From NCBI GenBank assembly GCA_041671485.1, contig JBAZBL010000003.1:25412-89411 (forward strand): a stretch of 64,000 nt of DNA, given 5' to 3'. This stretch comes from Minisyncoccota bacterium (lineage in GTDB: Bacteria; Patescibacteriota; Minisyncoccia; Phycocordibacterales; PALSA-1337). Position numbers and translations under genes: made by a program. The notes below the pieces were generated by a model, which searched no databases, had not been told where the DNA came from, and worked only from the letters and a program-made list of their open reading frames with translations. Below, in pieces: positions 12,475 to 63,255 of the stretch. The stretch's first letter is position 1. Each line of letters opens with the position of its first letter.

Positions 12475-13504
12475 TATCTCTTGCCAACTTCTTATTGGTT
12501 AATCTTTCCTCATACAGTTTTTTCCCATTCTCTGCAAGGCTTCGTACTAATTGGGGTTGATTTTTCAATAATAAAATCTTTTCTGCCAAATCTTCTGGAT
12601 CACCACAATTGACCATAAGACAATTGACATTATCAGTCAATAATTCGCTAATTCCATTTGTACGACCTGTGATATAAGGAAGACCGAGAGCTAGTGTTTC
12701 GAAAGCTTTATGAGGAATAGTACGTTCCAATCTTTCATGAATTCCAAACTGCCCCAAAGAAACATGACATTCGAGCATTTTCTGTCTTACTTCATTGGGC
12801 AAAATATGTTCAGTGATCCATTTGAGATTTTTTGGTTTCAATTCATCTATACAAGATTTGATCTCTTCTTCTGTGCGTCCACTACCAATAATGAGAAATT
12901 CTATATCCTCATTTTCAAGAAGTTTTGCTGTTTGGACAACATATTGAATACCAGCTTCAGGCAAGAATTTGCCACGGAAAATAGCGGTGAACTTTTCCCT
13001 CTTTTCGACACTTGAATCTTCATGAAAAATTTCTTCATCGGCACCCGTTAGAACACACACAACCTTTTCAGCTTCCAATAAAAATCTTTTTATGAAATAT
13101 TCTTTCTGATGATTTGTCTCTACCAAAATAAGATCAGCCGACTTTGCTGACAACAAATCGATAAGCCTAATCCATAATCTCATGAAAGGGTTATAACGAT
13201 AACGACCACGAGAAATAACTTCACCTTCATATAGAGAACAAAGAGCGTCGAAAACAATAGGTTTACAAGAAATCATTTTTGCGAAAGATACAACAATATG
13301 TCCTGGATAACCAACAATCATCACATCATAACCGCCATTTTTTATAATCATTCTGTGTTTCTTCCATAATCTCCAATACTTGAGAAGTCCAAGCGAATCA
13401 TCATGACATTCTATAATTTCTATACCATTTTGCCTCAGACCAGAAATATAGACCTTATTACGGCCAAAGTTACTATTATATATACCAAAATAACATATTC
13501 TCAT
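12452..13504 (-). CDS. Glycosyltransferase family 1 (GT-B); paralog of 18144-19196
   Basis: N-terminus MRICYFGIYN...ISGLRQNGIEIIEC is near-identical in pattern to the ORF at 18144-19196. The C-terminal half has the GT1 E-x7-E region (ETLALGLPYI). Confidence 0.7.
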   Translation of the reverse strand: MRICYFGIYNSNFGRNKVYISGLRQNGIEIIECHDDSLGLLKYWRLWKKHRMIIKNGGYDVMIVGYPGHIVVSFAKMISCKPIVFDALCSLYEGEVISRGRYRYNPFMRLWIRLIDLLSAKSADLILVETNHQKEYFIKRFLLEAEKVVCVLTGADEEIFHEDSSVEKREKFTAIFRGKFLPEAGIQYVVQTAKLLENEDIEFLIIGSGRTEEEIKSCIDELKPKNLKWITEHILPNEVRQKMLECHVSLGQFGIHERLERTIPHKAFETLALGLPYITGRTNGISELLTDNVNCLMVNCGDPEDLAEKILLLKNQPQLVRSLAENGKKLYEERLTNKKLARDIIDCVQI

Positions 13505-13506
13505 AA

Positions 13507-14232
13507 TTATTTATTTATTAGTATCTTTCGCAATCGAGATTTCAATCTTAAAAGATCACAAAACATCCCTATGGAATCTTTAAATAAAGTTACTTTGGAT
13601 TCAGAACTATCTCGCCAAATGATATCTATAGAATCAATCTTATACTTATACCATTGTGATATGACTATAAGTTCAGTATCGAATATCCAAGTCCTTTCCT
13701 GAAGAAGAGGGGCAATCTTTTCGAAAGAACTTCTTTTCATGGCCTTGAAACCACATTGATGATCTGCGAGACGACTACCGAATAAACTACGAACAAAAAA
13801 ATTATAGAACCATGACGAGATCTTACGCACTTTTTTCTTGGATATAACTTGGGATTGTGGCCCAAGACGATTCCCTATTGCCATATCATTCCCTTTTATA
13901 GCAATCGAATCAATAAGTGGTCTAAAAAAATCGAGATCTGAAGACAAATCTATATCCATAAAAGAAAGTACATCAGCCTCACTTTTCATCCATGCAGTCC
14001 TGATCGCCAATCCTTTTCCTTTACCATCTATTTTCAGACTTTTAACATTATTATACTTTCTCGATAAATCACTACATATTAAAGGTGTACGATCTCTACT
14101 ACCATTATCTGCAAGAATAATAGAATAGTCATAAGGAAAAGAAGAAGACTTCAAATGTTCCACAAGCTTCATTATTGAGTCTGTCAATATCTTTTCTTCA
14201 TTATATAACGGAATAACGATATCTACCTTCAT
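13507..14232 (-). CDS. Glycosyltransferase family 2 (polyprenol-phosphate sugar transferase-like)
   Basis: MKVDIVIPLYNEE ... ILADNGSRD ... DIDLSSD are the classic GT2 motifs. Start set at the third ATG. Confidence 0.7.
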   Translation of the reverse strand: MKVDIVIPLYNEEKILTDSIMKLVEHLKSSSFPYDYSIILADNGSRDRTPLICSDLSRKYNNVKSLKIDGKGKGLAIRTAWMKSEADVLSFMDIDLSSDLDFFRPLIDSIAIKGNDMAIGNRLGPQSQVISKKKVRKISSWFYNFFVRSLFGSRLADHQCGFKAMKRSSFEKIAPLLQERTWIFDTELIVISQWYKYKIDSIDIIWRDSSESKVTLFKDSIGMFCDLLRLKSRLRKILINK

Positions 14233-18143: not shown

Positions 18144-19196
18144 TTATTTAGAAATATATTTAGATATTACAGCAACAAGTGATTTTGCGACAGGTGCAGG
18201 GAAATATCTCGATACTGCAATATAACCATTCTTGGCAAGACTTGCACATCTCTCTTTATCATTTGCTAACATCTTTATACCATCTACTATAGATTTAATG
18301 TCATTATTTACAAGTAATATTTCACTATCAGAAAAGATTTCTCTTATTGCAGGAGTATCCATAGTAATTACTACTCTACCTGACGCCAATCCTTCATATA
18401 CTTTATTTGGTACGGCCCTTTGCCCTTTTGCAGTATCACCAAATATACCTAATATTATATCAGCTTCTGCCATGTATTTATTTAATTCACTCGGTGGTAC
18501 TGGTGCTCTTGATACAAATTCAATATTCTCTAGTTTATAACTCTCGGCAAGATCCTTGGTTCTTTTATATTCTTGACCATTACCAATGAGTCGAAATCTA
18601 AGTTTGGGATTATCTGCACACAATCGTGCTACTTCAATTATCTTATTTGTCCCTTGAACTGGAATAAATTTTCCATGCCAATTGATCAATATATAATCTT
18701 TATTGATATATGGTAATGGATGATAAAGCTTATCATTGACACCTAGATATACTGCATGTATTTTATCTTTATTCACACCAAACCATGACAACCAATATTG
18801 TCTATTACCTTCTGTATCAGTTATAGATACATGTGAAAACATTATTCCAAGCCAGTCAAGAATGAGTAGTTTCATCGCTCTAGGATGCCACCACGCAATC
18901 TCCTTACGATCGTAGACTACGGCTTCAAACATAGAATAAAAAGCATCAGAAATTATAGGTTTTGATGATATGAGACGAGCAAGAATGGTTGCAACAGGAG
19001 AAGGATATGCAACATATACACAATCATAATCATTATGTAATGCACGAAGATTTTTCCAGAGTTCGAAATATCTTCTCTTATATCTCCAATCTTCCCTACA
19101 CTCTGTAACTTCAACACCTATCTCTCTCAATCCAGATAAAAGAATATTATTTCTAGAATATGTAGGATCATAAATACCAAAAAAACAAATTTTCAT
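18144..19196 (-). CDS. Glycosyltransferase family 1 (GT-B); paralog of 12452-13504
   Basis: MKICFFGIYDPTYSRNNILLSGLREIGVEVTEC shares its N-terminal pattern with the paralog. C-terminal VYEGLASGRVVI motif. Confidence 0.7.
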   Translation of the reverse strand: MKICFFGIYDPTYSRNNILLSGLREIGVEVTECREDWRYKRRYFELWKNLRALHNDYDCVYVAYPSPVATILARLISSKPIISDAFYSMFEAVVYDRKEIAWWHPRAMKLLILDWLGIMFSHVSITDTEGNRQYWLSWFGVNKDKIHAVYLGVNDKLYHPLPYINKDYILINWHGKFIPVQGTNKIIEVARLCADNPKLRFRLIGNGQEYKRTKDLAESYKLENIEFVSRAPVPPSELNKYMAEADIILGIFGDTAKGQRAVPNKVYEGLASGRVVITMDTPAIREIFSDSEILLVNNDIKSIVDGIKMLANDKERCASLAKNGYIAVSRYFPAPVAKSLVAVISKYISK

Positions 19197-24755: not shown

Positions 24756-25907
24756 TTAGCATTTACCAGAACATGTATGATGAGAATTATTTTTAATATC
24801 CATCAAAAATAGTTTACATAGTTGATCCAATGTATTATCTATAGAAAATTGTTTTGATTTTTGCTTTGCTATCATCCTTATTTTCTCTCTAAAATCAGAA
24901 TCATCTAGTATTTTGAGAATTGATATTTTCAATGCTTCTCTATCATCTGGCTTCACTAGAATACCAGAATTACCATCTTCTATTATTTCTGGAATATTTC
25001 CAATATTTGTCGATACAACAGGTATTCCAGCATACATTGCTTCGACTATTTGGAATGAAAAACTCTCAAAAGAAGTATTCAAAACAAAAATGTCAGAAGC
25101 TATAAGATAAGAGAACATCTCTGATCTTGATATTGATCCTGTCAATATGACTATACTTTCAAGACCTTTGTCTACTATATATCTTTCCAATGCAGGTCTG
25201 TCTGGACCATCACCTATTATATATAGTTTACAATTCGGTATATCTTTTACTAGATTTCCTATAACATCGATCAATGTGAAAAAACCTTTCCATGGAACCA
25301 GGCGACCAGAGGATACAATTGATATCACATTATTTGAAATAGAAACTTTTTCTCTCGCAACATCTTTAGATTCATCAAGTGTAGGGAATTCAATACCATT
25401 ATAAATATGAAAAACTCTTTTTTGTTTTTTATTCCATCTAGATACCAAATCTCGAAAATAGATACTAGGAGTAATAACAGTATCCGCATGACCTACAACA
25501 AACTTTTGTATTGATCTCAAGAATTCAACATTCGTTTTGTATTTCTTGTTTTGAAAATCATCTATAGTATCACTGATACCAAATCTCTGCATCGATTGTT
25601 CCCAAGCATAATCACCAGCTACTCGTATAAAAAATTTCTTACCCAATATCTTGGATACAAATAAAGATGGCAGACCAACAGAGACAGGATCTTGGGCAAA
25701 TATAATATCACACCCTCTGGATCTTTTAATAAGTTTAAAGAAGAAAACAATATGTCTTATAACCTTGGGCAAATGCCTCACCTCACCAAATGACAAAATC
25801 AAAACCTCTATCCCTCTTTTTGGCAATTCATCATTTAGGAGTTTGGAATAGGTTGCCGGCCCCCCAATATCTGGCGGATATATACCCGTTGCTATCAATA
25901 TTTTCAT
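24756..25907 (-). CDS. Glycosyltransferase family 1
   Basis: MKILIATGIYPPDIGGPATY ... SFESFSFQIVEAMYAGIPVVSTNIGNIPEII (E-x7-E). Confidence 0.7.
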   Translation of the reverse strand: MKILIATGIYPPDIGGPATYSKLLNDELPKRGIEVLILSFGEVRHLPKVIRHIVFFFKLIKRSRGCDIIFAQDPVSVGLPSLFVSKILGKKFFIRVAGDYAWEQSMQRFGISDTIDDFQNKKYKTNVEFLRSIQKFVVGHADTVITPSIYFRDLVSRWNKKQKRVFHIYNGIEFPTLDESKDVAREKVSISNNVISIVSSGRLVPWKGFFTLIDVIGNLVKDIPNCKLYIIGDGPDRPALERYIVDKGLESIVILTGSISRSEMFSYLIASDIFVLNTSFESFSFQIVEAMYAGIPVVSTNIGNIPEIIEDGNSGILVKPDDREALKISILKILDDSDFREKIRMIAKQKSKQFSIDNTLDQLCKLFLMDIKNNSHHTCSGKC

Positions 25908-25944: not shown

Positions 25945-26135
25945 TTTTGGATAATTGCAAGCAACATTTGATTTTTAGTTTTGGCAACCTGTTTGAGCGC
26001 AGTATAAATTTCTTGACAAAATACTGCTGTTAGCTGGAATTGCTCGATGTATGACATCGAGCAATTCCGCAAGTATTTTGTCTAGAAATTTAACGGAGCG
26101 AGTCTTGCCAAAACTAAAAATCAAATGTTGCTTGC
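25945..26135. repeat. Family A long nested palindromic repeat, copy 1
   Basis: Perfect 32-bp terminal inverted repeat (ttgcaagcaacatttgatttttagttttggcaa / ttgccaaaactaaaaatcaaatgttgcttgca). Inner perfect 15-bp IR (ggaattgctcgatgt-atg-acatcgagcaattcc). Conserved unpaired motifs tgagcg (left) and ggagcgagt (right). Confidence 0.6.
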
Positions 26136-26139
26136 ACTA

Positions 26140-27360
26140 TCACATATTCTCAAATATCTCATTCATCTTTTCTGCAACCATATCCCAATCATATTTTTGT
26201 CTGACCATCTCACTCGCCTGTCTTATGATATATTCTCGGGATTCTTTGTCTTTCATAAGCTTTTCTACTTTCTGTGCAATACTCTTTGGATTCTTAACCT
26301 CACAGAAAAGTCCAGTCTCACCATTCTGGAGGAAATCAACAATACCTCCAACTGGCGTTGCAATAACTGGAATACCCGCAGCCATCGCTTCTATAAATGA
26401 ATTGCCAAATCCTTCAGAAAGTGATGGACGTACAAATATATCAGACACTTGCAAATATTTTGGTAATTGATCGTGTGGAATATTCCCTAGGAATTGAACT
26501 CTCGATCCGAGGGTAGGCCCGCCTTCGGCGGGGTAGGCCTCGGGAACCACCTCCGACATCGCTTTCAATCTACTTTCTTCATAACCACTTCCCAATATCA
26601 ACAATTTGACATTTTCTGGCAAATATTGAAGAGAGTCAATAATGTCATTCACTGCATTTTTCACGACCAATCTGGATGTTGTTATGATGAAAATATCGTC
26701 TTTTTGCTTGCCCAATTGCCCTTTTAAGGCCTCTAAACGCCCACTAGAGACCTGTTTAGAGAAATAAGCATAATCTACACCATTTGGCACTATTTTCACC
26801 TCGCATTTGGCCCCCATATCTACAGCCCAATCTGCCAGATATTTTGATATTGTCTGAATACAATCTGCACGTCTAAATATCATTTTGAAAAGTGGATATA
26901 GTGGTCTAGCGCGTTTCTTGATATATGGTATAGGATCGCCATCTTGGAGAGTAAATATAAATGGGACTTTCGGATGAATGAGTTTGAAGAAAAGTGCAGC
27001 AAATGAATTGTATGTAGCCATAAGTGACCATATAGCATCGTATTTCTTTTTCCTATGAAGAGAGACTGCTTTCAGAAAACCAGTTATCAAGAAAGCATAT
27101 TTATTCAAATCTAAATACCAATGCAAAGAATCTGAAGAAGTTTTTTGCTTACCCGTCCAACCTACACGATATATATCAACATTCCCAATACGTTCAAATT
27201 TGGGCAAGCTAGAATCCAGATGCAAAGTCACCATGTCAAACTGGACATCATCTGTAGATATCCTATCTGTTATTTCTTTTATCGCTATCTCTGCCCCGCC
27301 TATATAACGTGGATAGTAGACTAGCGAAAATATGAGTATTTTGCGCATATCTTCATTCAA
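26140..27360 (-). CDS. Glycosyltransferase family 1
   Basis: GT-B; RVQFLGNIPHDQLPKYLQVSDIFVRPSLSEGFGNSFIEAMAAGIPVIATPVGG. Contains the GC-rich in-frame insertion at 26497-26553. Confidence 0.7.
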   Translation of the reverse strand: MNEDMRKILIFSLVYYPRYIGGAEIAIKEITDRISTDDVQFDMVTLHLDSSLPKFERIGNVDIYRVGWTGKQKTSSDSLHWYLDLNKYAFLITGFLKAVSLHRKKKYDAIWSLMATYNSFAALFFKLIHPKVPFIFTLQDGDPIPYIKKRARPLYPLFKMIFRRADCIQTISKYLADWAVDMGAKCEVKIVPNGVDYAYFSKQVSSGRLEALKGQLGKQKDDIFIITTSRLVVKNAVNDIIDSLQYLPENVKLLILGSGYEESRLKAMSEVVPEAYPAEGGPTLGSRVQFLGNIPHDQLPKYLQVSDIFVRPSLSEGFGNSFIEAMAAGIPVIATPVGGIVDFLQNGETGLFCEVKNPKSIAQKVEKLMKDKESREYIIRQASEMVRQKYDWDMVAEKMNEIFENM

Positions 27361-29608: not shown

Positions 29609-29830
29609 ATTACTAATATTGTAGGCATCTAGGAAATATGAGTTTTCGCAAATCGAGGACTGTCTGAGCGACTAAAAATTGCTTGATAAAATGCGTAGGT
29701 TGCGGGAATTGCTACGATACTGAGGCATTTCTAATGCCGAAGTATCGAGCAATTCAATAGCATTTTATCTAGCAATTTAAGGAGCGAGTTCCGCAGATTT
29801 GCGAAAACTCATATTTCCTAGATGCCTACA
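29609..29830. repeat. Family A long nested palindromic repeat, copy 2
   Basis: Perfect 35-bp terminal IR (tgtaggcatctaggaaatatgagttttcgcaaatc and its reverse complement). Inner IRs aaattgcttgataaaatgc/gcattttatctagcaattt and gaattgctacgatact/agtatcgagcaattc. Shares actgtctgagcg and ggagcgagttccgcag motifs with the other copies. Confidence 0.6.
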
Positions 29831-31013
29831 TAGGAGACTCTTCGAGAAAAATCCTCTTATCATACACACTCCCTGCATTCCACAACATCCAACTATCGAA
29901 GCCAGCGTCATATGTCGCTTGCATTTGTTTCCTCACCATTTCTGGCGTATATGTTGCACCAAGGTTAAATGCTTGAAGCCATGGACGTAATTTGTTTGGT
30001 GTAGAAGAAGCATTGTATATTTTCACAAAAGCTTGATCCATAGAATATTTCACGACTTTATATGGTTCTGTAGCAGGTTTCTCTATACCGATAAAGCCAT
30101 ATGCAAAATGTGATGGATATACCATAGGACCAACATAGTCAAAATATATGAGAGCATCTTCTAGAACTTGACCAATACCCAAGTCACCACTAGCACTAGT
30201 CGTAAGCCCAAATAGATCCGCGGAGAGAACTGCTTTTGTTTCTGACATTTGCTGGCGCAGATATGCAAAGAAACTAGAAAGAATATTCGTTCTATGTGTT
30301 GTAGAACTTATATTATAAAGTATGTCTTTTATATTTCCATCAGATGGAAAACGTATATAGTCATAATTCAATTCATCGAAACCAATAGATGAAGCTTCTT
30401 TGGAAAGATCTACTATATAATCCCAAAATACTTTTGAACCAGGGTGAATATAAGCGAGACCCATATTGTCATGCCAAGACGATTCAGGATTGGATACTTT
30501 CTTTATAGCTGATTCAGGATACTTGGATGCATATAGAGGATCTTGGAATACTGTAATCCTAGCTATTACATATATACCCAATTCATGCAATTCATTTATA
30601 AATTCTGGAAAATCTTGTACGATACAACCTCTACCACGAGCATAATTCCCTACCGTCGTAGAAGAATACGATACTGTACCTGTATAGTCTTTTAGATCAA
30701 CAACGATACTATTCAATTCTGTTCCTTTGAAAAGTTCAATGGTTTTATTGCGCAATCTCTTTTCGCTAGCTGTACATGCGGTGATATATATAGCTTTGAC
30801 AGGAATGGGTGTAGCGATATGAGTGATGGTAGGTTTGGCAATAATATTATTGGTCAAAGTTGATACATCAATATCATCTGATGTATTTGAATATTTGATT
30901 ACGCCAATAGATGATATAAATATCAAATAAGAGAGTATTGCAAGAATAAAAAAAGCACCAACGATGACCGTGACAATTCGCGTTGCGCCAAACTTACGCC
31001 ACTCTTTTATCAT
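29826..31013 (-). CDS. Membrane-anchored putative glycoside-hydrolase-like (TIM-barrel) protein
   Basis: N-terminal TM anchor followed by a roughly 350-aa domain with alternating beta/alpha pattern and conserved acidic residues (GFDELNYDYIRFP). Family assignment is tentative. Confidence 0.35.
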   Translation of the reverse strand: MIKEWRKFGATRIVTVIVGAFFILAILSYLIFISSIGVIKYSNTSDDIDVSTLTNNIIAKPTITHIATPIPVKAIYITACTASEKRLRNKTIELFKGTELNSIVVDLKDYTGTVSYSSTTVGNYARGRGCIVQDFPEFINELHELGIYVIARITVFQDPLYASKYPESAIKKVSNPESSWHDNMGLAYIHPGSKVFWDYIVDLSKEASSIGFDELNYDYIRFPSDGNIKDILYNISSTTHRTNILSSFFAYLRQQMSETKAVLSADLFGLTTSASGDLGIGQVLEDALIYFDYVGPMVYPSHFAYGFIGIEKPATEPYKVVKYSMDQAFVKIYNASSTPNKLRPWLQAFNLGATYTPEMVRKQMQATYDAGFDSWMLWNAGSVYDKRIFLEESPM

Positions 31014-32601: not shown

Positions 32602-33150
32602 CTACTCCTGATGAATGATATTTGTCAAAATAGCGTATTCATCCTTTTCCTTGACTTCATTATCTTTCCAATAATCTGTAAGATTATTCCGGATTTCCTG
32701 CCCCATCATTCTTTGTTGAATCCATTTTTGACTTCGTCCCATTCCCTGCCAATAATGTCTACTACGATTGAGCGCCTTTTCTGGGTCGTTTATTTCTTCG
32801 ATTCTTTCATAACCCACTTTCGCCAACCACAATTTGAACGGCTCAGCTTTTGGTGATGGGATTGACTGGATTACACGAAACATCGTCTCCGTATCAGCCG
32901 CATCTGTTAGATAAAATTTACCATCCGCAGCTCGCATTTTCAGTTGGTTACATTTTGTAACCACCTCACTTCCTTCTTGTTTTAAGCGGTTTTTCAACAC
33001 TTTCCAATAATTTCTCGGATTTTCACTAGCATTGAGCGCACCAACCACATCAACCACCGAAAAATACCATAACTCTTTTTCCTCATCCCAAATCCTGCGT
33101 ATTTTTTTGCCTTCGAATATGGCTAACTTATTTGATTTCATGATTACCAC
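32602..33150 (-). CDS. Bro-N domain protein, DinD-like (DNA-damage-inducible protein D / phage antirepressor-like)
   Basis: FEGKKIRRIWDEEKELWYFSVVDVVGAL (Bro-N) and IQSIPSPKAEPFKLWLAKVGYERIEEINDPE, as recalled for DinD-like proteins. Confidence 0.6.
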   Translation of the reverse strand: MVIMKSNKLAIFEGKKIRRIWDEEKELWYFSVVDVVGALNASENPRNYWKVLKNRLKQEGSEVVTKCNQLKMRAADGKFYLTDAADTETMFRVIQSIPSPKAEPFKLWLAKVGYERIEEINDPEKALNRSRHYWQGMGRSQKWIQQRMMGQEIRNNLTDYWKDNEVKEKDEYAILTNIIHQE

Positions 33151-33230: not shown

Positions 33231-34460
33231 ATGTCTGCAAACGAACCAACAAACCGTATCGTTTATGTAACCCGCGACATCGAACGCGCTTTGGGTGTTT
33301 TGCCAAATGATAACTATATGATTGTCTCAAATAAGACTTCATACTCCGAAAAGATATTGAAAAATTTGAATAATACAAACAATTCGATTGGAAACAATAT
33401 TCTTTTAATTGAAAATGCGACCATTCTTGACACTGCAGAACTATTAGAACAGAACAAGGTACGAGATTATATCAATCAGAACGATTCTACAGTTTTGGTT
33501 TTTAAGAATACTTCGCTGATTGAAGATATCGTCAAAAAGAATGGCTGGAATTTACTCAATCCTCCATCCACATTAGCGGAAAAATATGAGAATAAGATCA
33601 CACAAGTCGAATGGCTCGGAGAATTGGCGAAATATTTACCACCACACTCTATTTCACTTGCTAAAAATTTGAAATGGTCCGACCAACCTATTGTCGTCCA
33701 GTGGGCGCACGGACATACAGGAGATGGAACTATTCTTGTAAATTCTCAAAAGGAACTTGATACCATTCAAGCAAAGTTTCCAGAAAGGTTGGCTCGAGCC
33801 ACAACTTTTATCAACGGACCTTCATTTACCGTTAATATGGTAGTGGCACCAAATACTATCTTAATTGGAAATATTAGTTATCAGATAACAGGTCTCCCAC
33901 CATTTACAGATAACCGATTCAGCACGATTGGTAATGATTGGGGGAAAATCGTACCAGCGTTACTCAATAAATCAGAGGTTGAATATATCCATCAAATAGC
34001 GCGAGAAATTGGTGAAAAAATGCACAAGGATGGTTGGAAAGGACTTTTTGGTATTGATATTATCAAAGAAGAAAAGACTGGTAAAATCTTTCTAATAGAG
34101 ATAAATGCTAGACAACCAGCTTCGACGACTTTTGAATCACAGTTGCAATCAAGATACGGAGGTCAGACCTCCGTATTCGAAGCACATTTACTTGCTTTGC
34201 AAGATATACAAATAGAAAGACCCATAATTGAGATCGAGGAGGGCGCGCAGATAATTCAAAGGGTTACAAAAGATATTACAAATATTTCAAAGAGTGTGAT
34301 CGACTCTCTGGAATCATCCGGATACAATGTTATTGCATATTCAAATACAGAGATAAATTCAGATCTTGTCAGGATACATAGTAATAAAGGGATAATCTCT
34401 AAACACAATCAATTTAATGAAGCGGGTGAGAAAATCAGAGCTTGCATTATTGGAAAATAA
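33231..34460 (+). CDS. ATP-grasp domain protein
   Basis: Central ATP-grasp pattern (IVVQWAHGHTGDGTILV ... GLFGIDIIKEEKTGKIFLIEINARQPAS). Confidence 0.6.
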   Translation: MSANEPTNRIVYVTRDIERALGVLPNDNYMIVSNKTSYSEKILKNLNNTNNSIGNNILLIENATILDTAELLEQNKVRDYINQNDSTVLVFKNTSLIEDIVKKNGWNLLNPPSTLAEKYENKITQVEWLGELAKYLPPHSISLAKNLKWSDQPIVVQWAHGHTGDGTILVNSQKELDTIQAKFPERLARATTFINGPSFTVNMVVAPNTILIGNISYQITGLPPFTDNRFSTIGNDWGKIVPALLNKSEVEYIHQIAREIGEKMHKDGWKGLFGIDIIKEEKTGKIFLIEINARQPASTTFESQLQSRYGGQTSVFEAHLLALQDIQIERPIIEIEEGAQIIQRVTKDITNISKSVIDSLESSGYNVIAYSNTEINSDLVRIHSNKGIISKHNQFNEAGEKIRACIIGK

Positions 34461-34492: not shown

Positions 34493-35290
34493 ATGAACAC
34501 CAAAACGCTCTCATCTCGCGCCCTATCTGTTATTGATCAATATCGCCATTTCGCTGTAGGTAGTGCAGTGTGTAATGTTCCATATTTCAATAATAAAGCC
34601 TCTCGCGCACGAGCAACTCTCCGCACATACGGTGGCAAAGGAAGTCCAAAAGATATTTTTGAAGAAGTTCAAGGACTAATGATAAAGAGTCATATTTCTC
34701 CAAGTCTTTTGAATGATGAAGCATTGAAGAAAATGCTAGTAGAAAATAATATTGGTATAGATTGTTCTGGCTTTGCATACTATGTTCTAAATGCAGAAAA
34801 TGAAGAGCGTGGCTATGGATCGCTCGATAAACATATTCATTTTACCAGTTGCAAAGGAATAGTTGGCAAGATACGATGTCACTTTCGACCAGTAGAGAAT
34901 TGTGATGTGGCAACATTTGCAAATGATAAAAATAGTCGAATAATTGCTATAAAAGAAATACAAGTTGGAGATGTGATAACAATGCTTGCAAAAATAGATT
35001 CCAATAGTGATACCCAGATCCGCAACACTGAACGTGATCATATTCTAATCATTCATCAGGTTGATTATCAAAATTTTGTGCCAATAAAGATTTATTATAG
35101 TCACACAGTTGCATATCCAGAAGATGGTCTATATGGAACAGGCGTGAAGCAAGGTAGTATAGAAATACTCGATTTAAACAAATCAATTACCGAACAGAGT
35201 TGGAGTGAAAATGAAAGTGATACAAACAATCGCATCTTCAATAGAGCTCAAATATCAAATACAGAAGTTAGGAGAGTGATAAAGGATTGA
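34493..35290 (+). CDS. Hypothetical protein with a possible papain-like Cys/His (NlpC/P60-type) motif
   Basis: GIDCSGFAYYVL Cys motif and a later ILIIHQ His; weak assignment. Confidence 0.35.
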   Translation: MNTKTLSSRALSVIDQYRHFAVGSAVCNVPYFNNKASRARATLRTYGGKGSPKDIFEEVQGLMIKSHISPSLLNDEALKKMLVENNIGIDCSGFAYYVLNAENEERGYGSLDKHIHFTSCKGIVGKIRCHFRPVENCDVATFANDKNSRIIAIKEIQVGDVITMLAKIDSNSDTQIRNTERDHILIIHQVDYQNFVPIKIYYSHTVAYPEDGLYGTGVKQGSIEILDLNKSITEQSWSENESDTNNRIFNRAQISNTEVRRVIKD

Positions 35291-35295
35291 TACAA

Positions 35296-35466
35296 ATCAG
35301 GAAAAGGTTATGTCATTTCGTGAATCGAGTACTGTCCGAGCGTAGTCATTCGACTAGTATTTCCCAAAAGATGAGGCCGTTTATGTCCGAGAGGCCGAGT
35401 CTTTTGTGGAAATACAGGAGAATGACGCAAGCGAGTTACGCAGATTCACGAAATGACATAACCTTT
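35296..35466. repeat. Family A long nested palindromic repeat, copy 3
   Basis: Perfect 29-bp terminal IR (caggaaaaggttatgtcatttcgtgaatc / gattcacgaaatgacataaccttttcctg). Interior shares gtactgtccgagcg and gcaagcgagttacgcagatt motifs with copies 1 and 2. Confidence 0.6.
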
Positions 35467-35529
35467 TCCTGAGACTCATTCAAGGTTCTATAATCGCCAA
35501 AAACAGCTTTTTATGGTATCCTTTTTGTC

Positions 35530-39201: not shown

Positions 39202-39358
39202 CAAAAAAGCCCAACGAAATATACTCTCGAGCTGACACGCAATGCAATGTGAGCCATGAACAAATTGCCCATATTTGCTGAATCCTTGTAAGCAAATATG
39301 GTTGCAATTTGGAATGGCGACCTTGCGTGGAGGCGAGAGAGATATTTCGTCGGGCTTT
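39202..39358. repeat. Family B structured palindromic repeat, copy A (bidirectional terminator-like)
   Basis: Roughly 155-nt rod: an outer 25-bp stem flanked by T-runs on both strands and an inner long hairpin (cccatatttgct/agcaaatatgg). About 90 percent identical to 57180-57335, with compensatory substitutions in the stems. Confidence 0.6.
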
Positions 39359-39367
39359 TAATATAAA

Positions 39368-41909: not shown

Positions 41910-42230
41910 TTATTCTGATTTTGTATTTTGAGCCAAAAGTTTTTTTACTTTCGTGAATTCTTGTAACATTGCCTGCAATTTTACTGCCTCATCAGATGAA
42001 GGTGAAGCATCTATAGAGAATTGAGAAATCTTTTTTATCAATACTCCATATAGATCATGAAAATAATCTTCGATAATATGTCGTTCTGGTAACTTTTCTC
42101 TATTACACCATTCTGGCCGATCAAATATCCTTACAATTTCGAGAGGTCTCTTCAAGCCATCATATACTACTGATTCATGAGATAATATCCCATCTAGAGA
42201 TGGGGATACAATATTATAATTTCCAACCAT
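41910..42230 (-). CDS. Hypothetical protein
   Basis: 106-aa ORF with tight spacing to radC. Confidence 0.35.
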   Translation of the reverse strand: MVGNYNIVSPSLDGILSHESVVYDGLKRPLEIVRIFDRPEWCNREKLPERHIIEDYFHDLYGVLIKKISQFSIDASPSSDEAVKLQAMLQEFTKVKKLLAQNTKSE

Positions 42231-42244
42231 TTGTTTTTTATTAT

Positions 42245-42976
42245 TTAATAATTTGCCTTTATACTGACGAATTCATCTTTTGTTATTATGATATGATCGA
42301 GAAGTGAAATACCTAGAATTTTACCTGCTTGTATGATCTGTTTGGTTATCTCTATATCTTCGGATGAAGGTGTCGCTTCACCAGAAGGATGATTGTGAGC
42401 AAGAACTATAGCAGATGCATTTGACTCTATTGCAGGACGAAAAACTTCACGGGGGTGAACAATATTTGTATTTATTGTGCCTATTGATATAACTTCATCA
42501 CGAATGATATGATTTCGACTATTCAAATACAATCCACGTAAATGTTCTTTTGGCAAATTACGCATATCCTGTAAATATTCATAGGCATCTTTTGCACTTC
42601 TTATCGTCGCGAAATTTGATTGGTTTCGATCGTAAAAACGTCGTCCGAGTTCACCACAAGCTACAATAACACACGCTTTAACAATCGGTACATTCATCTC
42701 AAAAGCAAGATGCTTAGCATCTTTTTCGGCCAAGATGCTCTTTTCACCATATTCACGAATGAGACGGTTTGCCATTTCGAGTACATCTTCTTTGACCGTA
42801 CCGACGCCTAGGACTACCGCTAAAAGCTCCTTCACACTCAATGCTTCTGGCCCTTGTGACATCAATCTTTCGCGTGGTTTCTCTTCTGTCGGCAAATCAT
42901 GGATCGTCTGAACATACTCACGATTCATGATCGAGTCGAGAAACAAAACATTTGAACGAATGGCATAAGTCTGCAT
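42245..42976 (-). CDS. radC: RadC-family JAB-domain protein
   Basis: HhH N-terminal region and JAMM motif HNHPSG. Confidence 0.8.
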   Translation of the reverse strand: MQTYAIRSNVLFLDSIMNREYVQTIHDLPTEEKPRERLMSQGPEALSVKELLAVVLGVGTVKEDVLEMANRLIREYGEKSILAEKDAKHLAFEMNVPIVKACVIVACGELGRRFYDRNQSNFATIRSAKDAYEYLQDMRNLPKEHLRGLYLNSRNHIIRDEVISIGTINTNIVHPREVFRPAIESNASAIVLAHNHPSGEATPSSEDIEITKQIIQAGKILGISLLDHIIITKDEFVSIKANY

Positions 42977-53960: not shown

Positions 53961-54992
53961 TTAAAATGACCGCAGATATTCCTCAAGCAATCGGTCATAT
54001 ATTGGTTGCAATATGCACTGATAATTATAGGCATTACCATGCTTTAACATACCCAAATAAGACGAGACTGTTTCGAACTTTGGCTCGTTATTGCATTTAT
54101 TCATCATTCTTCTTCTGGTAGTTGTCCTTAACACCCGATGATCTGGAAAGTGTATCCAGCCCAAAAAGTCAACGCCCGAAGCAAAAGTCTTGAGAAATGT
54201 TTTGTCGGGATGTAATGACAAATGGAGTTTTTCTTTCAAAAATTGGTCCATATCTGTAAGCATAGATAAAAGTAATTTGTGATCAGTGTTAAGGATTACA
54301 AAATCATCGGCATAACGAATATAGTATTTGACTTTGATTTTATGCTTCATGAATTGATCGAATTTATTCATGTAAATATTCGCGAATAATTGAGAAGTTA
54401 AATTTCCTAGTGGCATACCAACATTTGGGTCACCCGAATGAAAACTGTTTATTATTTGATCTAACAGATGAAGAATGTCCCGGTCGGGAATATAGGAATT
54501 GAGTATGTCAAATAATATTTGATGATCTATTGAAGCAAAGAACTTTCTAATATCACATTTCAAAACCCAAACAGTTTTTGTATGATTGCACGATGCTTGT
54601 CTGGCAAACTCGCTAAATTTTTTGAAGGCTCTATGTGTACCTTTGTCGATCCTACAAGAATATGAATCAGAGATGAAAGTTCGGTCAAAGAATGGGTATA
54701 GTTTCCTGTAAAGTGCTCGATGTAAAATTCGATCTCTTACAGTAGCTTTATGGATATTACGAGGTTTGGGATCATTGATTTTGAAGGGCATATATGGACC
54801 ATGTACAAATGTTCTATTTTTCAAATCTTTGTGGAGTTGTAATAGGTGTCTCATTAACTGTAATCGAAATTCAGCTACATCTTCCCTTCTGTCTTTGTCG
54901 GCTGAAAATTCATTCCACGCCTCTAGTAAATTCTCAATGGATATGATAGCTTCGTAGTTATGGCTGAATTGAATTCGTCCCATATTTCTCAT
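53961..54992 (-). CDS. Diversity-generating retroelement (DGR) reverse transcriptase
   Basis: 343 aa; RT motifs including PLGNLTSQLFANIYM (the DGR-type I/LGxxxSQ motif rather than the group II QGxxxSP) and YIRYADDFVIL (YADD). Lies directly downstream of the TR on the same strand. Confidence 0.85.
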   Translation of the reverse strand: MRNMGRIQFSHNYEAIISIENLLEAWNEFSADKDRREDVAEFRLQLMRHLLQLHKDLKNRTFVHGPYMPFKINDPKPRNIHKATVRDRILHRALYRKLYPFFDRTFISDSYSCRIDKGTHRAFKKFSEFARQASCNHTKTVWVLKCDIRKFFASIDHQILFDILNSYIPDRDILHLLDQIINSFHSGDPNVGMPLGNLTSQLFANIYMNKFDQFMKHKIKVKYYIRYADDFVILNTDHKLLLSMLTDMDQFLKEKLHLSLHPDKTFLKTFASGVDFLGWIHFPDHRVLRTTTRRRMMNKCNNEPKFETVSSYLGMLKHGNAYNYQCILQPIYDRLLEEYLRSF

Positions 54993-55017
54993 AATACCCC
55001 CCCCACGGTTTTTACCA

Positions 55018-55404
55018 GTTGTCGAAAAGCTTAAATCAAGCTACAAACTTTGGCATGAATATCACGGACTCGTACCGAAAACACAAAGATATTCGCTTGG
55101 CAATAGAATAGATAATCTCTTAGTAGAAAGCATCGAAGCGACAGTAACTGCGACATTTTTATCAAAAGAAGAGAAATTACCGTGGATACGACTGGCAATT
55201 CGAAAAACCGATACATTGAAAGTTTTACTCATGATTTTATGGGAAACTAAATCAATAGATGATAAAAAATATATTGCTCTTTCTGTGAAATTAGATGAGG
55301 TCGGCAAGATGCTCGGTGGTTGGAGTGGACAGCTTATAAAATCTACCTCTACTAAAACTATAGTGAATAAACAAAACTCTCCAGCAAAAGCAGGAGAGAA
55401 ATGA
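55018..55404 (+). CDS. Avd-like four-helix-bundle protein (accessory variability determinant family) on the opposite strand to the RT; no canonical start codon as sequenced
   Basis: Frame open from 54973 to the TGA at 55402-55404. Translation ...KLKSSYKLWHEYHGLVPKTQRYSLGNRIDNLLVESIEATVTATFLSKEEKLPWIRLAIRKTDTLKVLLMILWETKSIDDKKYIALSVKLDEVGKMLGGWSGQLIK matches the 23S-rRNA-IVS/Avd four-helix-bundle pattern. An ATG at 54960 is one frame off, across a C8 tract. Confidence 0.45.
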   Translation, partial: VVEKLKSSYKLWHEYHGLVPKTQRYSLGNRIDNLLVESIEATVTATFLSKEEKLPWIRLAIRKTDTLKVLLMILWETKSIDDKKYIALSVKLDEVGKMLGGWSGQLIKSTSTKTIVNKQNSPAKAGEK

Positions 55405-55412
55405 AGAGAGTC

Positions 55413-55534
55413 GCCGACACCGCCGCAGGGTTGTTGTCTTTGAAGTCGTTGTCAAGCCAGTTGTAGTTCCAGTCCCACCTGCCGCCGTTCCAGTTGAGGT
55501 AACGAACATAGAGGTTGTCATCGGCGCTGCGGTA
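55413..55534 (-). repeat. DGR template repeat (TR)
   Basis: 122 nt aligning gap-free with 55861-55982. All 17 differences are at TR adenines (sense = - strand). The TR sense strand is rich in AAC codons. Confidence 0.85.
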
Positions 55535-55778
55535 TCGTATGAAGCACCATCCATACCACCACCCCTCGGATACCCTCAGGGCTGAATCGTATTTGGCATC
55601 GTAATGCCTTAGCACCTCATACCAAGTATTTTCATTTTTTAATGAAGTTCTGCATACACCACTCTACCCAAAATCTTGGTCGTGGATATTCTCGATGTAT
55701 GGATACTGGTTTCGGTAGCAAGCAACATTAGTCGCTCACATATTCACCTACTCCCGCCACATCTTACCATATAAATCA

Positions 55779-55802
55779 GCCCCGCGCGTTGTCGCACGGG
55801 GC
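55779..55802 (-). other. GC-rich stem-loop downstream of the VR (candidate DGR homing-enhancing hairpin/cruciform)
   Basis: gccccgcgcg-ttgt-cgcacggggc: 10-bp stem (one C-A mismatch) with a 4-nt loop, about 58 nt beyond the IMH-like end of the VR. Confidence 0.45.
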
Positions 55803-55853
55803 CAAGGTCAAAGGTCACAGGTTCTGAAGAACAAAGTGACTGATGTTCAAGAG

Positions 55854-56474
55854 CTAACTTGCCGACACCGCCGCAGGGTCGAGGCCCCTGAAGTCGTTGT
55901 CAAGCCAGCGGCAGTTCCAGCCCCACCTGCCGCCGCCCCAGCGGAGGCAACGAACATAGAGGTCGTCATCGGCGCCGCGGTAGATGGTCCCCCAGAAGAA
56001 GATGTAGCGGGTGTTTCCGTTTTCATCCTTTTTCCATGCCTCGGGAATGAGGTGCGGGTTCTTCAGGAGATAATCCAAAACATTGGCGTTGAGGACTCGT
56101 TGCTTGGCGAGTTCCTTGCGCAGGTCATTGCCACGGATGGCATTGCCTTTCTTCTGGAGCTTGGACAACCAAAACTCGATTTTCTTGCCATCGAGATAGA
56201 GGTCGTCTCCACGGCATTCGAGCTTGGCAACCTTGCCACTCTGGTGTTCTTCCACCTTCCAGCCGTCAGGAAGGTAGGGGTCGGCACCGAGGTCAATGGC
56301 GTGTTCGATAGGCTTGATTTCATACAAACCCAGTTGGACACCCCTCACACGACCGAGGAAATCCCCGACAGTGAGCGCTTTGACTTCTTCCAGCGATTGG
56401 AAGCCGTTGCGGTTGAGCGCATGCTCGATTTCTTGAGCCAAACCAACACCGAGCGTTAACTTTATATTATCCAT
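55854..56474 (-). CDS. DGR target (variable) protein, 206 aa, with C-terminal VR
   Basis: Intact ORF whose last 40 codons or so are the VR. GC content is far above the genomic background. No obvious signal peptide. Confidence 0.8.
   Translation of the reverse strand: MDNIKLTLGVGLAQEIEHALNRNGFQSLEEVKALTVGDFLGRVRGVQLGLYEIKPIEHAIDLGADPYLPDGWKVEEHQSGKVAKLECRGDDLYLDGKKIEFWLSKLQKKGNAIRGNDLRKELAKQRVLNANVLDYLLKNPHLIPEAWKKDENGNTRYIFFWGTIYRGADDDLYVRCLRWGGGRWGWNCRWLDNDFRGLDPAAVSAS
55861..55982 (-). repeat. DGR variable repeat (VR) at the 3' end of the target gene
   Basis: Cognate of the TR. Encodes YRGADDDLYVRCLRWGGGRWGWNCRWLDNDFRGLDPAAVSA, against TR-encoded YRSADDNLYVRYLNWNGGRWDWNYNWLDNDFKDNNPAAVSA. 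Confidence 0.85.
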
Positions 56475-57179: not shown

Positions 57180-57335
57180 TAAAAAGCTTGGTGAAATATC
57201 TCTCGAGCCAACACGCAATGCGATCTGAGCCATGAACAAATTGCCCGTATTTGCCGAATCCTTGTAGGCAAATACGGTGCAATTTGGAATGGCGACCTTG
57301 CGTGGAGGCGAGGGAGATATTTCACCAAGCTTTTT
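57180..57335. repeat. Family B structured palindromic repeat, copy B (bidirectional terminator-like)
   Basis: Homologous to 39202-39358 with covarying stems (gcttggtgaaatat/atatttcaccaagc versus gcccaacgaaatat/atatttcgtcgggc; ccgtatttgcc/ggcaaatacgg versus cccatatttgct/agcaaatatgg). T-runs on both strands. Confidence 0.6.
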
Positions 57336-60667: not shown

Positions 60668-60840
60668 TGGCTTTCCCTTGTTCTCTCCGACTTTCATCGG
60701 AGGACGGCCCGAAGGCATTTGTACCAATATACTATCAAATCAAAGCTGAAAGTCAAGCAAAATCGGTTCTTTAAATAATTGGTTCCAAACCACCAAACTA
60801 TTACCGAAAATAACATTGATAAATAAGGCTAAAATATTTG

Positions 60841-60927
60841 CGGAGACGATGGGATTCGAACCCATGAAGCCGGTTAAGGCTTACCTCGTTAGCAGTGAGG
60901 CGCTTTCGACCGCTCAGCCACGTCTCC
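60841..60927 (-). tRNA. tRNA-Ser (anticodon GCU), class II with long variable arm; CCA not encoded
   Basis: Hand-folded: acceptor GGAGACG/CGTCTCC, anticodon loop CUGCUAA, variable arm AAGCC-TTAACC-GGCTT, T-arm ATGGG-TTCGAAT-CCCAT. Confidence 0.75.
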
Positions 60928-60984
60928 TTTCATGTCGATCGAATCTTATTCTTGCACAAAATCTGTATTTTTCAAAGCGAGTAA

Positions 60985-61005
60985 TACGGAGGTCTGACCT
61001 CCGTA
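60985..61005. repeat. 21-bp perfect palindrome tacggaggtc-t-gacctccgta; second copy at 34155-34175 inside the ATP-grasp gene
   Basis: Identical palindrome arms at both sites (centre base a versus t, i.e. reverse-complement orientation). Confidence 0.4.
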
Positions 61006-61068
61006 TGAGAATCAATATGAGAACAGGTCTATTTGCGTGTAAATCATTTAAAGCCTAAAATAAAATCC

Positions 61069-63255
61069 ATGAACATCTCCCTCTCCGATGCCGTGGTAGA
61101 ACACTTCCGCCTTACTCCCATACAAAAGCTGGCCCTAAAGAAGCTTGGCATAACAAGTATCCGTGATCTCTTGTATCATTTCCCTTCTCGATACGGCGAC
61201 ACAGCAGAGACTTGTAATATTGATTCACTAGACAAGGGTGATACTGCTGTTGTATATGGCAAGATCACAGGGCTCAAAACTAGCAAGGGCTTCAAATCCA
61301 AAATCCCGATGGCAGACGGTTACGTACAGGATGAAACAGGTAAGATACATTGCGTATGGTTCAATCAGCCATATCTAGCAAAAACAATACAAGAAGGTTC
61401 TATGGTTAGGATTGAAGGCAGAGTCAGTCAGAGACAAAAGACCAATGAACTCTATTTCTCAAATCCGAAAGTAGAAATGGTTACAAAGTTGCCAATAGGA
61501 GTTGGCGATTCCCTATTTAGTGGATCTACAGATGACAGCGAATCACATACACTGTATCCAGTATATCCAGAGTCTCGTGGCATCACTTCGATCTGGATAT
61601 ATCACAATATACAAAAGATATTTAGGAGTGGTTTATTGGATACGATATCAGAATGCATTCCAGAAGATATACTAGAAAAATACCATTTACCTCAAGTAAA
61701 AACTGCACTTATATGGATACATACCCCGATGAAGCGTGACGATGCTCTATCTGCACGCAAACGATTTTCTTTCGAAGAAATATTCTTGATACAGATAGGA
61801 AAATATCAAGAAAGAAAGAAATATGAAAGTCTTCCATCATTTACTATTGAAGAAAATCCAAGAAGTGTACAAGAATTTATCCGCCGCTTCCCATTCCATG
61901 CAACAGAAGCACAAGAGAAGAGTATAGATACTATCCTAAATGATATGAAAAGGGGCATTGCTATGTCACGACTCTTAGAAGGAGATGTTGGCTCCGGCAA
62001 AACCGCCGTGGCAGCAACATCTGCTTATTCAGTCATTACATCCAGAGATGAAACAGGCAAAAACAATTATTTCCAAGTAGCATATATGTGCCCAACAGAA
62101 ATATTGGCAATGCAACATTTCGAATCATTCATACAATATTTCTCATATCTAGGTGTACAAGTAGGACTTTTGACATCCTCTGGTTGTCGCAAATTCCCAT
62201 CGAAAGTCAATCCAAAGGGCTGGACAGATATTTCACGATCCCAACTTTTGAAATGGGTGGAGGGAGGTGAAATACCAATAGTCATAGGCACACACTCTCT
62301 CATACAAAAGTCTGTTCAATTCAAGAAACTTGCTTTTGTTATTATAGATGAACAACATCGTTTTGGTACATCACAGAGAGCACAATTGGTTAGGAAAAAT
62401 GGACATAGTTCTGTTGCACCACACCTTCTGTCTATGACAGCTACACCTATTCCACGCACATTAGCACTCACCATGTATGGCGACCTCGATCTCACTCTAC
62501 TCGATCAATCTCCATCTGGTCGCAAGCCGATAATAACAGAGATTGTCTTGCCAAATCATCGTGATCAAGTATATGAAAAAGTTCGTCAAGAATTGAAGAC
62601 TGGGCGACAAGTATATGTTATTTGTCCTAGGATAGATGAGCCAGATCCAGACAAAGAATTGGCATTGAATGCAAGATCAGTCAAAGCCGAAGCAAAAAGG
62701 TTGAAAGATGATGTATTCCAAGAATATGAAATAGGTATTTTGCATAGTAGGATGAAACCAAAAGAAAAAGATATGGTAATGAATCAATTCAAAAATGGAG
62801 ATATAAATATACTCTGTGCTACTTCGGTCGTAGAAGTGGGTGTCAATGTACCAAATGCAACAGTGATAATCATAGAAGGCGCAGAAAGATTTGGTCTAGC
62901 ACAACTCCATCAATTGCGTGGACGAGTCATGAGAAGTACCTATCAACCATATTGCTATGCATTCACAGAATCAAATGGAGCAAAATCAATAGAGCGTCTC
63001 AAGGCTCTCCAAAACGCAAAGAATGGCTTTGAATTAGCAGAACTCGATCTAGTCCAGCGTGGTACTGGTGGTTTGTCTGGCAATAAACAATGGGGTGTAT
63101 CTGATGTCGCTATGGAAGCCCTGAAGAATCTGAAAATGGTCGAAGCCGCGCGCAATGAAGCACAAAGATTGGTAGACCTAGACTCTACTCTCACTAACTA
63201 CCCTGTCTTGAAACAAGAAGTAGATAATAAGAAAAAGAATTTGCATTTTGAATAA
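61069..63255 (+). CDS. recG: ATP-dependent DNA helicase RecG
   Basis: Wedge/OB N-terminal domain, Walker A GDVGSGKT, DEQHRFG, TATPIPRTLAL and the C-terminal helicase motifs (HGRMK-like ILHSRMKPKEK). Confidence 0.85.
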   Translation: MNISLSDAVVEHFRLTPIQKLALKKLGITSIRDLLYHFPSRYGDTAETCNIDSLDKGDTAVVYGKITGLKTSKGFKSKIPMADGYVQDETGKIHCVWFNQPYLAKTIQEGSMVRIEGRVSQRQKTNELYFSNPKVEMVTKLPIGVGDSLFSGSTDDSESHTLYPVYPESRGITSIWIYHNIQKIFRSGLLDTISECIPEDILEKYHLPQVKTALIWIHTPMKRDDALSARKRFSFEEIFLIQIGKYQERKKYESLPSFTIEENPRSVQEFIRRFPFHATEAQEKSIDTILNDMKRGIAMSRLLEGDVGSGKTAVAATSAYSVITSRDETGKNNYFQVAYMCPTEILAMQHFESFIQYFSYLGVQVGLLTSSGCRKFPSKVNPKGWTDISRSQLLKWVEGGEIPIVIGTHSLIQKSVQFKKLAFVIIDEQHRFGTSQRAQLVRKNGHSSVAPHLLSMTATPIPRTLALTMYGDLDLTLLDQSPSGRKPIITEIVLPNHRDQVYEKVRQELKTGRQVYVICPRIDEPDPDKELALNARSVKAEAKRLKDDVFQEYEIGILHSRMKPKEKDMVMNQFKNGDINILCATSVVEVGVNVPNATVIIIEGAERFGLAQLHQLRGRVMRSTYQPYCYAFTESNGAKSIERLKALQNAKNGFELAELDLVQRGTGGLSGNKQWGVSDVAMEALKNLKMVEAARNEAQRLVDLDSTLTNYPVLKQEVDNKKKNLHFE

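Follow-up and report, generated by a model that had tools for sequence, protein, structure and literature searches.

Several classes of short bacterial repeat fold as whole units. Repetitive extragenic palindromic (REP) sequences and REPINs, with their RAYT genes, are imperfect palindromes between genes. They form long hairpins at gene 3' ends and inside operons in either orientation, evolve by compensatory stem changes, build arrays in some genomes and show no target-site duplication. Their recognition is thought to be strand- and structure-specific. Correia elements (Neisseria), ERIC/IRU (enterobacterial repetitive intergenic consensus, or intergenic repeat units) and Rickettsia palindromic elements (RPE) are 100-210 bp long, foldable along the whole unit, polymorphic as indels between strains and co-transcribed beside or overlapping gene ends; an RPE may also be inserted in frame into a coding gene. 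Here we describe a family of hairpin elements, family A, that is like these systems in each of these respects. We start from one copy (copy 1) in a 64,000-nt stretch of a Minisyncoccota bacterium (assembly GCA_041671485.1, contig JBAZBL010000003.1, positions 25,412 to 89,411), which we call the window and whose own numbering is used for all features in it. The window is bacterial chromosome of 36% G+C with short rpoB/rpoC, dnaG, murC and rpsP-trmD, and one of its glycosyltransferases is identical to a protein that NCBI assigns to a "Candidatus Paceibacterota" MAG (metagenome-assembled genome).

Copy 1 belongs to a widespread family of non-coding, strand-asymmetric hairpin repeats in several bacterial phyla. 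A conserved, multi-copy structured element is unexpected in Patescibacteria (candidate phyla radiation, CPR), because their genomes are very small and hold few recognised repeats. Orthologous sites either hold the entire unit with its arms or lack it, and duplication can carry it to new loci. The arms co-evolve through mirrored substitutions and indels with almost no G.U pairs.

A repeat search set the boundaries of copy 1. The unit spans 181 bp (25956-26136, plus strand). Its outer arms (25956-25987 and 26105-26136) are 32 nt each, 100% complementary, separated by 117 nt and unique in sequence to this copy. Inside them lie the two strands of what we call the head: a left strand CCTGTTTGAGCG (25988-25999), in which a bulged UGUYU precedes GAGCG, and a right strand GGAGCGAGTC (26095-26104), which stands opposite the left GAGCG. 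By inspection, tandem G.A pairs flanking a G-C/C-G core could form between them. The interior hairpin (26005-26092) has homologues inside copy 2 and inside most copies from Patescibacteria. It comprises an inner helix (26005-26025 with 26072-26092; 20 of 21 nt paired, 95%) that includes a conserved T.T mismatch, and an apical hairpin (26036-26050 with 26054-26068; 15 nt, 100% paired, 3-nt loop). Folded as RNA, the unit is predicted to be a single rod of -96.5 kcal/mol, compared with -38.9 +/- 3.8 in dinucleotide shuffles (z = -15).

An earlier note on this DNA had described a perfect 32-bp inverted repeat around a perfect 15-bp one, able to fold as one rod and located between two GT1 genes. 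All of these features were recovered. Both neighbours are GT1/GT4-type glycosyltransferase genes on the minus strand: copy 1 is placed 3 nt after the stop codon (26140-26142) of the gene at 26140-27360 and 48 nt before the start of the gene at 24756-25907, and its core motifs read on the plus strand. The extent of 191 bp (25945-26135) needed correction, the left end having been set 11 nt too far out and the right end 1 nt short.

Two further copies lie in the same glycosyltransferase cluster according to the window's open reading frame (ORF) annotation. Copy 2 (29620-29830, plus strand, 211 bp, arms paired at 35 of 35) has the full head, GAGGACTGTCTGAGCG ... GGAGCGAGTTCCGCAG, and its right arm provides the last codons and the stop of a DUF4015 gene (29826-31013, minus strand). 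Copy 3 (35297-35472, plus strand, 176 bp, arms 30 of 30) has the same head and a different interior, and begins 6 nt past the stop of the gene at 34493-35290 (plus strand). The note had placed these relatives at 29609-29830 and 35296-35466; both exist, with the limits now given. It was right that the three share core motifs and differ in their terminal repeats. The left motif CTGTYYGAGCG (at 25989, 29660 and 35332) and the right motif RAGCGAGTYNYGC, of RAGCGAGT type (at 26096, 29782 and 35429), are always on the plus strand, and the outer arms are perfect within each copy and unrelated between copies. ATCGAGKACTGTC and AGCGAGTTMCGCAGATT are additionally common to copies 2 and 3. Copies 1 and 2 have most of the interior in common, including the T.T mismatch (CTTGR / YCTAG), together with which the covariation that the note had pointed out (gacaaaat/attttgtc versus gataaaat/attttatc) is visible in the sequences.

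When 185,579 species genomes were scanned for the two motifs at a distance of 85-115 nt, at least 115 loci were listed. Most of the loci listed are chance CTGTTCGAGCG matches in G+C-rich coding DNA and have no flanking repeats. About 15 have flanking inverted repeats of 13-38 bp, and all of these lie on low-G+C contigs of Saccharibacteria or Patescibacteria metagenome-assembled genomes (MAGs), or on short contigs binned elsewhere; taxonomic labels of short MAG contigs may be wrong. A stricter pattern gave 12 further loci in groundwater, soil and human-gut metagenomes. The motif pair with a long flanking inverted repeat occurs at about 25 independent public loci, far beyond chance. Their surroundings were read as 8-kb stretches, referred to below by L numbers.

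A covariance model built from 20 copies scores 100-165 bits on the plus strand versus about 30 bits on the minus strand (116.6 versus 33.5 bits for copy 1 with model R1) and identifies a core of about 120 nt that is homologous across the roughly 25 loci. In the model alignment 96.4% of cells pair. Both sides have changed in 20 of 32 pairs. Shuffles give 11.0 +/- 1.3 such pairs, none of 500 reaching 20, and sliding the partners gives no more than 6. The genome-wide motif search and the covariance model were among the checks suggested in the earlier note; the first points to a true family and the second to compensatory change. In searches of the window and six sets of related loci against Rfam 15, at gathering and permissive thresholds, only sub-threshold microRNA-precursor-like hairpin noise appeared. 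The literature on the head motifs and on repeats of Saccharibacteria, Patescibacteria and Ralstonia contained no relevant match that we found, and family A has apparently been undescribed until now.

The head and the arms evolve very differently. Summed over 21 distinct elements, the outer stems come to 654 bp, of which 12 are mismatched (98.2% complementary). Copies agree at 27% of the distal 14 nt of the arms, the value for random sequence, and at 91% of the head. Arm sequences match only between orthologous pairs. G.U pairs account for 59 of 1764 pairs (3.3%) on the plus strand and 28 of 1710 (1.6%) on the minus strand, with none among the 76 and 83 pairs of copies 1 and 2.

Elements fill the space between genes: the distance to a stop codon is 0-12 nt and that to the next start often 7-17 nt. 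The neighbouring genes are co-directional in fifteen cases, convergent in about six and divergent in none. The core runs sense to transcription in eight cases and antisense in eight, so we rejected a tie between orientation and transcription. A tie to replication was likewise discarded: GC skew on the core strand is negative in 15 loci and positive in 10.

Comparison with relatives shows gain or loss of entire units. Copies 1 and 2 are absent at the orthologous sites of the relative L133, whose flanking glycosyltransferase is 89% identical; a 48-nt spacer with a small hairpin (11-bp stem) stands at the empty site of copy 1 and an 80-nt spacer at that of copy 2. Conversely, the window has an empty site of 14 nt (42231-42244, minus strand) between radC (42245-42976) and the downstream gene (41910-42230). 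We call this junction radC-X, and in five Saccharibacteria contigs it holds a family A element of 194-196 bp. Neither copies 1-3 nor the other copies are bordered by direct repeats, and no conserved target sequence was seen at insertion sites. Derivation of the arms from the target was rejected, because the empty radC-X site has only 14 nt and the empty sites of copies 1 and 2 lack arm sequences. Duplication is seen in one groundwater genome, in which the copies at two loci (L101 and L107) share 97% identity that extends over 25 bp of stem.

The region around copies 1-3 is itself a variable segment, since L133 (4155-4719, versus window ~27357) has a RelB/YafQ toxin-antitoxin pair between HerA/TraG-like ATPase and glycosyltransferase genes that the window lacks. 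The segment also holds a Bro-N protein (32602-33150). Logan short-read contigs of the same organism (L002, L118, L119 and L120) all end within 25-80 nt of the genes flanking copies 1-3. Since these independent contigs end at the copies, perfect inverted repeats of 30-35 bp evidently break de Bruijn-graph assemblies.

The core can also flip in place. At the radC-X junction L004 and L012 have flanks identical at 396/400 and 397/400 positions, and their elements match at 193/194 only if one is inverted relative to the flanks (155/210 otherwise). A second flip separates L060 from L124, which have a recognisably homologous stem in opposite orientation. The radC-X series thus contains at least two independent flips, observed between genomes and not within one population.

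Arms change together. L058 and L124, whose neighbouring gene is 95.6% identical, differ in the T-rich part of the stem by indels that recur as mirror images on the two arms, and are wholly different over the distal 14-16 bp of either arm. In Ralstonia, two strains whose flanks at one locus are about 99% identical have stems set apart there by at least five changes, all of them fully compensated. The variant has the stem of another locus, which suggests copy-to-copy replacement.

Because G.U pairs are rare, indels are mirrored, the core is inverted and orientation is 8:8, the complementarity looks DNA-level rather than RNA-level. This modifies the conclusion of the earlier note, which had argued for selection on structure (an RNA or a cruciform-binding site) rather than recent transposition. 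The conserved core and the pairing kept through compensatory changes bear out the structural part; the object under selection could be an RNA, a single-stranded DNA hairpin or a cruciform. The opposition to transposition does not stand as worded: elements are gained and lost as units, L101 and L107 are 97% identical, and the radC-X site is empty in the window.

The head is not confined to Patescibacteria. Its left strand reads (GAGGA)CTGTYTGAGCG and its right strand RAGCGAGT(TCCGCAG). In Patescibacteria copies an extra hairpin of about 100 nt sits at the head apex; in other bacteria the strands are fused as GAGGACTGTCTGAGCGAAGCGAGTTCCGCAG, about 31 nt. A Spirochaetota contig (L108, 600-1150) has an array just downstream of ftsZ with eight matches to the head or left-strand motif, the last head having an outer stem of about 36 bp. 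This array contains fused and chimeric heads and a 260-nt tandem duplication with junctions within the head, which suggests that recombination or template switching may occur at the head apex. In a Polyangiaceae contig (Myxococcota) a short insert, an interior hairpin of 21 nt, splits the head strands. A rumen contig has two units in the order right strand, cap, left strand inside a 37-bp outer stem. The head of about 31 nt is also found in Firmicutes-binned contigs.

More than 130 megaplasmids of the Ralstonia solanacearum complex carry 2-10 unannotated hairpins each, about 110 bp long, with the head but without its GAGGA/CCGCAG flanks. The layout is CCTTGAATTT[variable stem]GGAGGC-TGTCTGAGCGAAGCGAGTT-TGCCTCC[variable stem]AAATTCAAGG. 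These elements (L139-L145, e.g. NC_003296.1 302946-303056) sit in a larger conserved repeat with a second hairpin, TTTCTTTGC...CAAAGAAAG.

High-GC human-gut contigs show the opposite polarity (right strand, capped hairpin, left strand), in frame within trmD. The trmD gene of L127 (1466-2461, OLRK01000012.1; likewise in L128 and L129; organism of 65-70% G+C) holds an insertion of about 220 nt in which a second right strand comes after the left one. The ORF stays open, with a predicted protein of 331 aa versus about 240, and the inserted part may be translated, as in RPEs, or removed. The head was searched for in E. coli and is absent there. A match within a transposase gene of a Roseomonas plasmid was non-significant and is put down to chance. 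In viral contigs the split-head pattern had no match and the fused head one, on an IMG/VR contig, and a phage origin of family A was rejected on these counts. A spacer-like origin of the variable arms was also dropped after an exact scan of IMG/VR with the three window arms gave no match, a weak negative.

As the head recurs in differing scaffolds and polarities, it appears from sequence to be a modular internal loop, that is, a two-strand module tolerating any helix on either side. Read by inspection, its left strand has a C-stem GGAC, a 5-nt bulge UGUYU and GAGCG, and its right strand GAGCGA and GUUCC. GAGCGA opposite GAGCGA can form G.A/A.G, G-C/C-G, G.A/A.G, and the fused apex is GCGAAGC. 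Tandem G.A pairs can adopt the sheared form, and d(GCGAAGC) is an unusually stable mini-hairpin. CGAG-facing-CGAG loops recur in the family A interior and in family B (below). That the head is spread across phyla points either to propagation machinery of very wide distribution or to its being read by a universal host factor.

We tentatively favour, at slightly less than even confidence, a reading of copy 1 as a selfish hairpin of REPIN or miniature inverted-repeat transposable element (MITE) type, with arms kept complementary at the DNA level and a head that serves as a single-strand recognition site. Three DNA-level events could maintain the arms: template switching at a hairpin or cruciform, recombination between the two arms, which would also flip the core, and the substitution of one copy for another. 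The head would be the only part under sequence selection. It would probably be read by the propagation machinery on one single strand, as folded single-stranded DNA (ssDNA) or possibly RNA. The likeliest machinery would be a structure-specific nuclease or transposase acting in trans, as for REPs, IS200/IS605 ends and integron attC sites. Operon read-through would yield a long perfect hairpin RNA, which may secondarily affect mRNA processing or stability.

Several observations weigh against a selfish hairpin. No transposase, recombinase or RAYT-like gene was seen among the window ORFs or beside copies elsewhere, and we know of no autonomous parent element. Insertion sites have no conserved target, unlike those of IS200/IS605. 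Copy number is low, at 3 per 64 kb in the window and 2-10 per Ralstonia megaplasmid. The radC-X element persists across Saccharibacteria in which the neighbouring gene is only 75% identical, and the head is nearly invariant across phyla; a host function would account for this persistence and invariance no less well than selfish DNA does. Drift does not account for the way L058 and L124 differ over the whole distal 14-16 bp of both arms. Finally, nearest-neighbour models give the isolated head no stable fold, whether as DNA or as RNA (z = +0.4 to +0.8), and the kinked, G.A-paired structure proposed for it is therefore drawn from inspection and from what is generally known of tandem G.A pairs and the GCGAAGC mini-hairpin.

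A more far-reaching proposal, which we regard as doubtful, is that the 31-nt head (bulged UGUYU and GA-GCGAAGC-GA, closed by GGAC/GUUCC) is a so far undescribed, pan-bacterial structural module that is read on one strand and marks a new class of flip-flop hairpins whose long, perfect stems are rewritten wholesale. Such hairpins would be either a new ssDNA-hairpin mobile system with a novel enzyme or a recombination-driven RNA/DNA switch of the tiny-genome Patescibacteria.

Among the alternatives, a cis-acting structured RNA survives best, although we consider it unlikely. The element would be co-transcribed with its operon and present a kink-turn-like, G.A-rich protein-binding loop on a long double-stranded RNA stem. 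It would be cut by RNase III or otherwise processed, would stabilise 3' ends or would act as a terminator/attenuator between cistrons, roles described for REP/BIME (bacterial interspersed mosaic elements), ERIC and Correia. The position of every copy downstream of a gene end, with none in a divergent promoter region, agrees with this, as do the strong covariation and the retention of non-Watson-Crick features on one strand (GAGCGA/GAGCGA, CGAG/CGAG and the T.T mismatch). Of 25 elements, 22 fold better as the plus strand (mean advantage 5.8 kcal/mol), because of the G.A-type head and the CGAG/CGAG loops, and G.U pairs are twice as frequent on that strand. Conservation of the head across phyla, in different scaffolds and both polarities within a helix, also speaks for an RNA role. 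However, orientation is 8:8, so that in half of read-through transcripts the head would be present as its complement; copies 1 and 2 themselves lie antisense to their operon. The core flips between near-identical genomes, and an RNA helix would be expected to hold far more G.U pairs, of which copies 1 and 2 have none. Promoter-like matches inside the element reach 9/12 at best, neither promoter nor terminator signals exceed those in shuffles, and no Rfam family matches. The canonical kink-turn has a 3-nt bulge and then tandem trans-sugar-Hoogsteen G.A / A.G pairs, beside a Watson-Crick C-stem. By inspection the head has a comparable GGAC/GUUCC C-stem and GA facing GA, but its bulge is 5 nt and folding models do not favour it.

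The flips raise the possibility of a phase-variation inverton, which we consider improbable. Here the arms would be inversion sites, and flipping of the asymmetric core would switch a signal (RNA motif, promoter or terminator) for the neighbours, in the window a surface-glycan cluster. As in known invertons, the segment between inverted repeats is found in both orientations in close relatives, at one locus with 99% identical flanks and with at least two independent flips in the radC-X series. Some copies lie in surface-glycan loci, the three window copies being in a glycosyltransferase cluster, the kind of locus that such switches classically control. Inversion also affects a spacer of about 95 nt that separates two adjacent Ralstonia elements, as a comparison of two strains shows (L141 versus L143). 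The window ORFs, however, include no invertase or recombinase domain, and the arms differ between copies, leaving no common recombinase site in them. The segment that inverts is a near-palindrome with no recognisable promoter; the asymmetric head itself could be the directional signal within it. Many copies adjoin housekeeping genes such as radC, ftsZ and trmD, and flips between perfect repeats of 30-38 bp are expected from general recombination or template switching without any function.

The earlier note had named simple terminator hairpins with coincidental motifs as the outcome that would undo its claim. Ordinary intrinsic terminators or chance palindromes sharing short motifs are barely credible: elements do stand at gene ends, the copy 1 central hairpin with its T-rich run matches a terminator scan on the plus strand and the L133 empty site holds its small 11-bp-stem hairpin, but the core of about 120 nt is homologous in some 25 loci (100-165 bits) and the head is identical across phyla, which excludes plain terminators or coincidence, while the stems are perfect, 30-38 bp long and A+T-rich (z about -15) where a short G+C-rich hairpin and a U-run are expected, the scan match is on the strand opposite to the flanking genes, and the elements are insertions relative to relatives.

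The window contains a second, related family, family B, which the family A covariance model does not detect. One copy follows murC (39205-39359, plus strand) and has the head ACGCAA-UGCAAUGU-GAGCC / GGCGA-CC-UUGCGU with a CGAG/CGAG loop. The other, about 90% identical, lies between pyk and rpsP (57181-57335, plus strand). The two differ in an 8-bp stem segment whose replacement is compensated (GCTTGGTG/CACCAAGC versus GCCCAACG/CGTCGGGC). The counterpart of the family A head is UCUGAGCC / GGCGACC, plus the CGAG/CGAG loop.

Other repeats in the window are of different kinds. Inverted repeats at 13269-13543 and 18198-18450 lie within coding sequence and were dismissed as chance matches. A near-perfect short palindrome, ATACGGAGGTC(A/T)GACCTCCGTAT, has two copies: 34154-34184, inside or beside the ORF 33231-34460, and 60984-61014, between tRNA-Ser (60840-60927) and recG (61033-63255). 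A diversity-generating retroelement (53961-56474) is inserted in the rpsP-khpA-trmD operon region. Its reverse transcriptase gene (53961-54992, minus strand) encodes RVT_1, and a link of the hairpins to this nearby gene was rejected, as the gene belongs to the separate retroelement. The retroelement has a 122-nt repeat pair (55413-55534 and 55861-55982). All 17 of its 17 differences are at T on the plus strand (A on the minus strand), which identifies 55413-55534 as the template repeat; the ORF 55854-56474 (minus strand) carries the variable repeat at its 3' end.

Family A is a natural system in which to ask how bacterial chromosomes tolerate long perfect palindromes, preserve their perfection and invert them. 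In practice, its elements break short-read assemblies, and they can add or change gene ends (copy 2) or be located inside essential genes (trmD).

Set against the described systems, family A departs from each at a different point. The REP sequence forms a conserved, species-specific stem, whereas the family A stem is variable and a head of about 31 nt is kept across phyla. That head, GAGGACTGTCTGAGCGAAGCGAGTTCCGCAG, lacks the GTAG/CTAC tetranucleotide of REPs; copy number is also low, and no RAYT (Y1 HUH) gene is annotated among the window ORFs. Correia, ERIC and RPE have conserved terminal inverted repeats, whereas family A arms pair perfectly in each copy but show 27% identity from copy to copy. 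Family A has no sequence similarity to these three, and Correia elements have a TA duplication where none was seen in family A. Like classical MITEs, the elements are small, non-coding and present or absent at orthologous sites (L133, radC-X); unlike them, they have no shared terminal repeats, no target-site duplication and no parent insertion sequence that we found. Integron attC sites and IS200/IS605 ends, which are recombined as single strands in a structure-specific way, also combine variable sequence with a conserved fold, conserved unpaired or extrahelical features on one strand and a position right after a gene. No R''/R' core sites (RYYYAAC / GTTRRRY) of attC type were seen on reading copies 1-3 and no integrase was found. 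Orientation is not uniform as in integrons, with genes around the copies on both strands, and the conserved target tetranucleotide of IS200/IS605 is missing. In how it works, family A is closest to a REPIN or to a palindromic element of the ERIC/Correia type; what sets it apart is a head shared across phyla, hypervariable yet perfect stems and a core that flip-flops.

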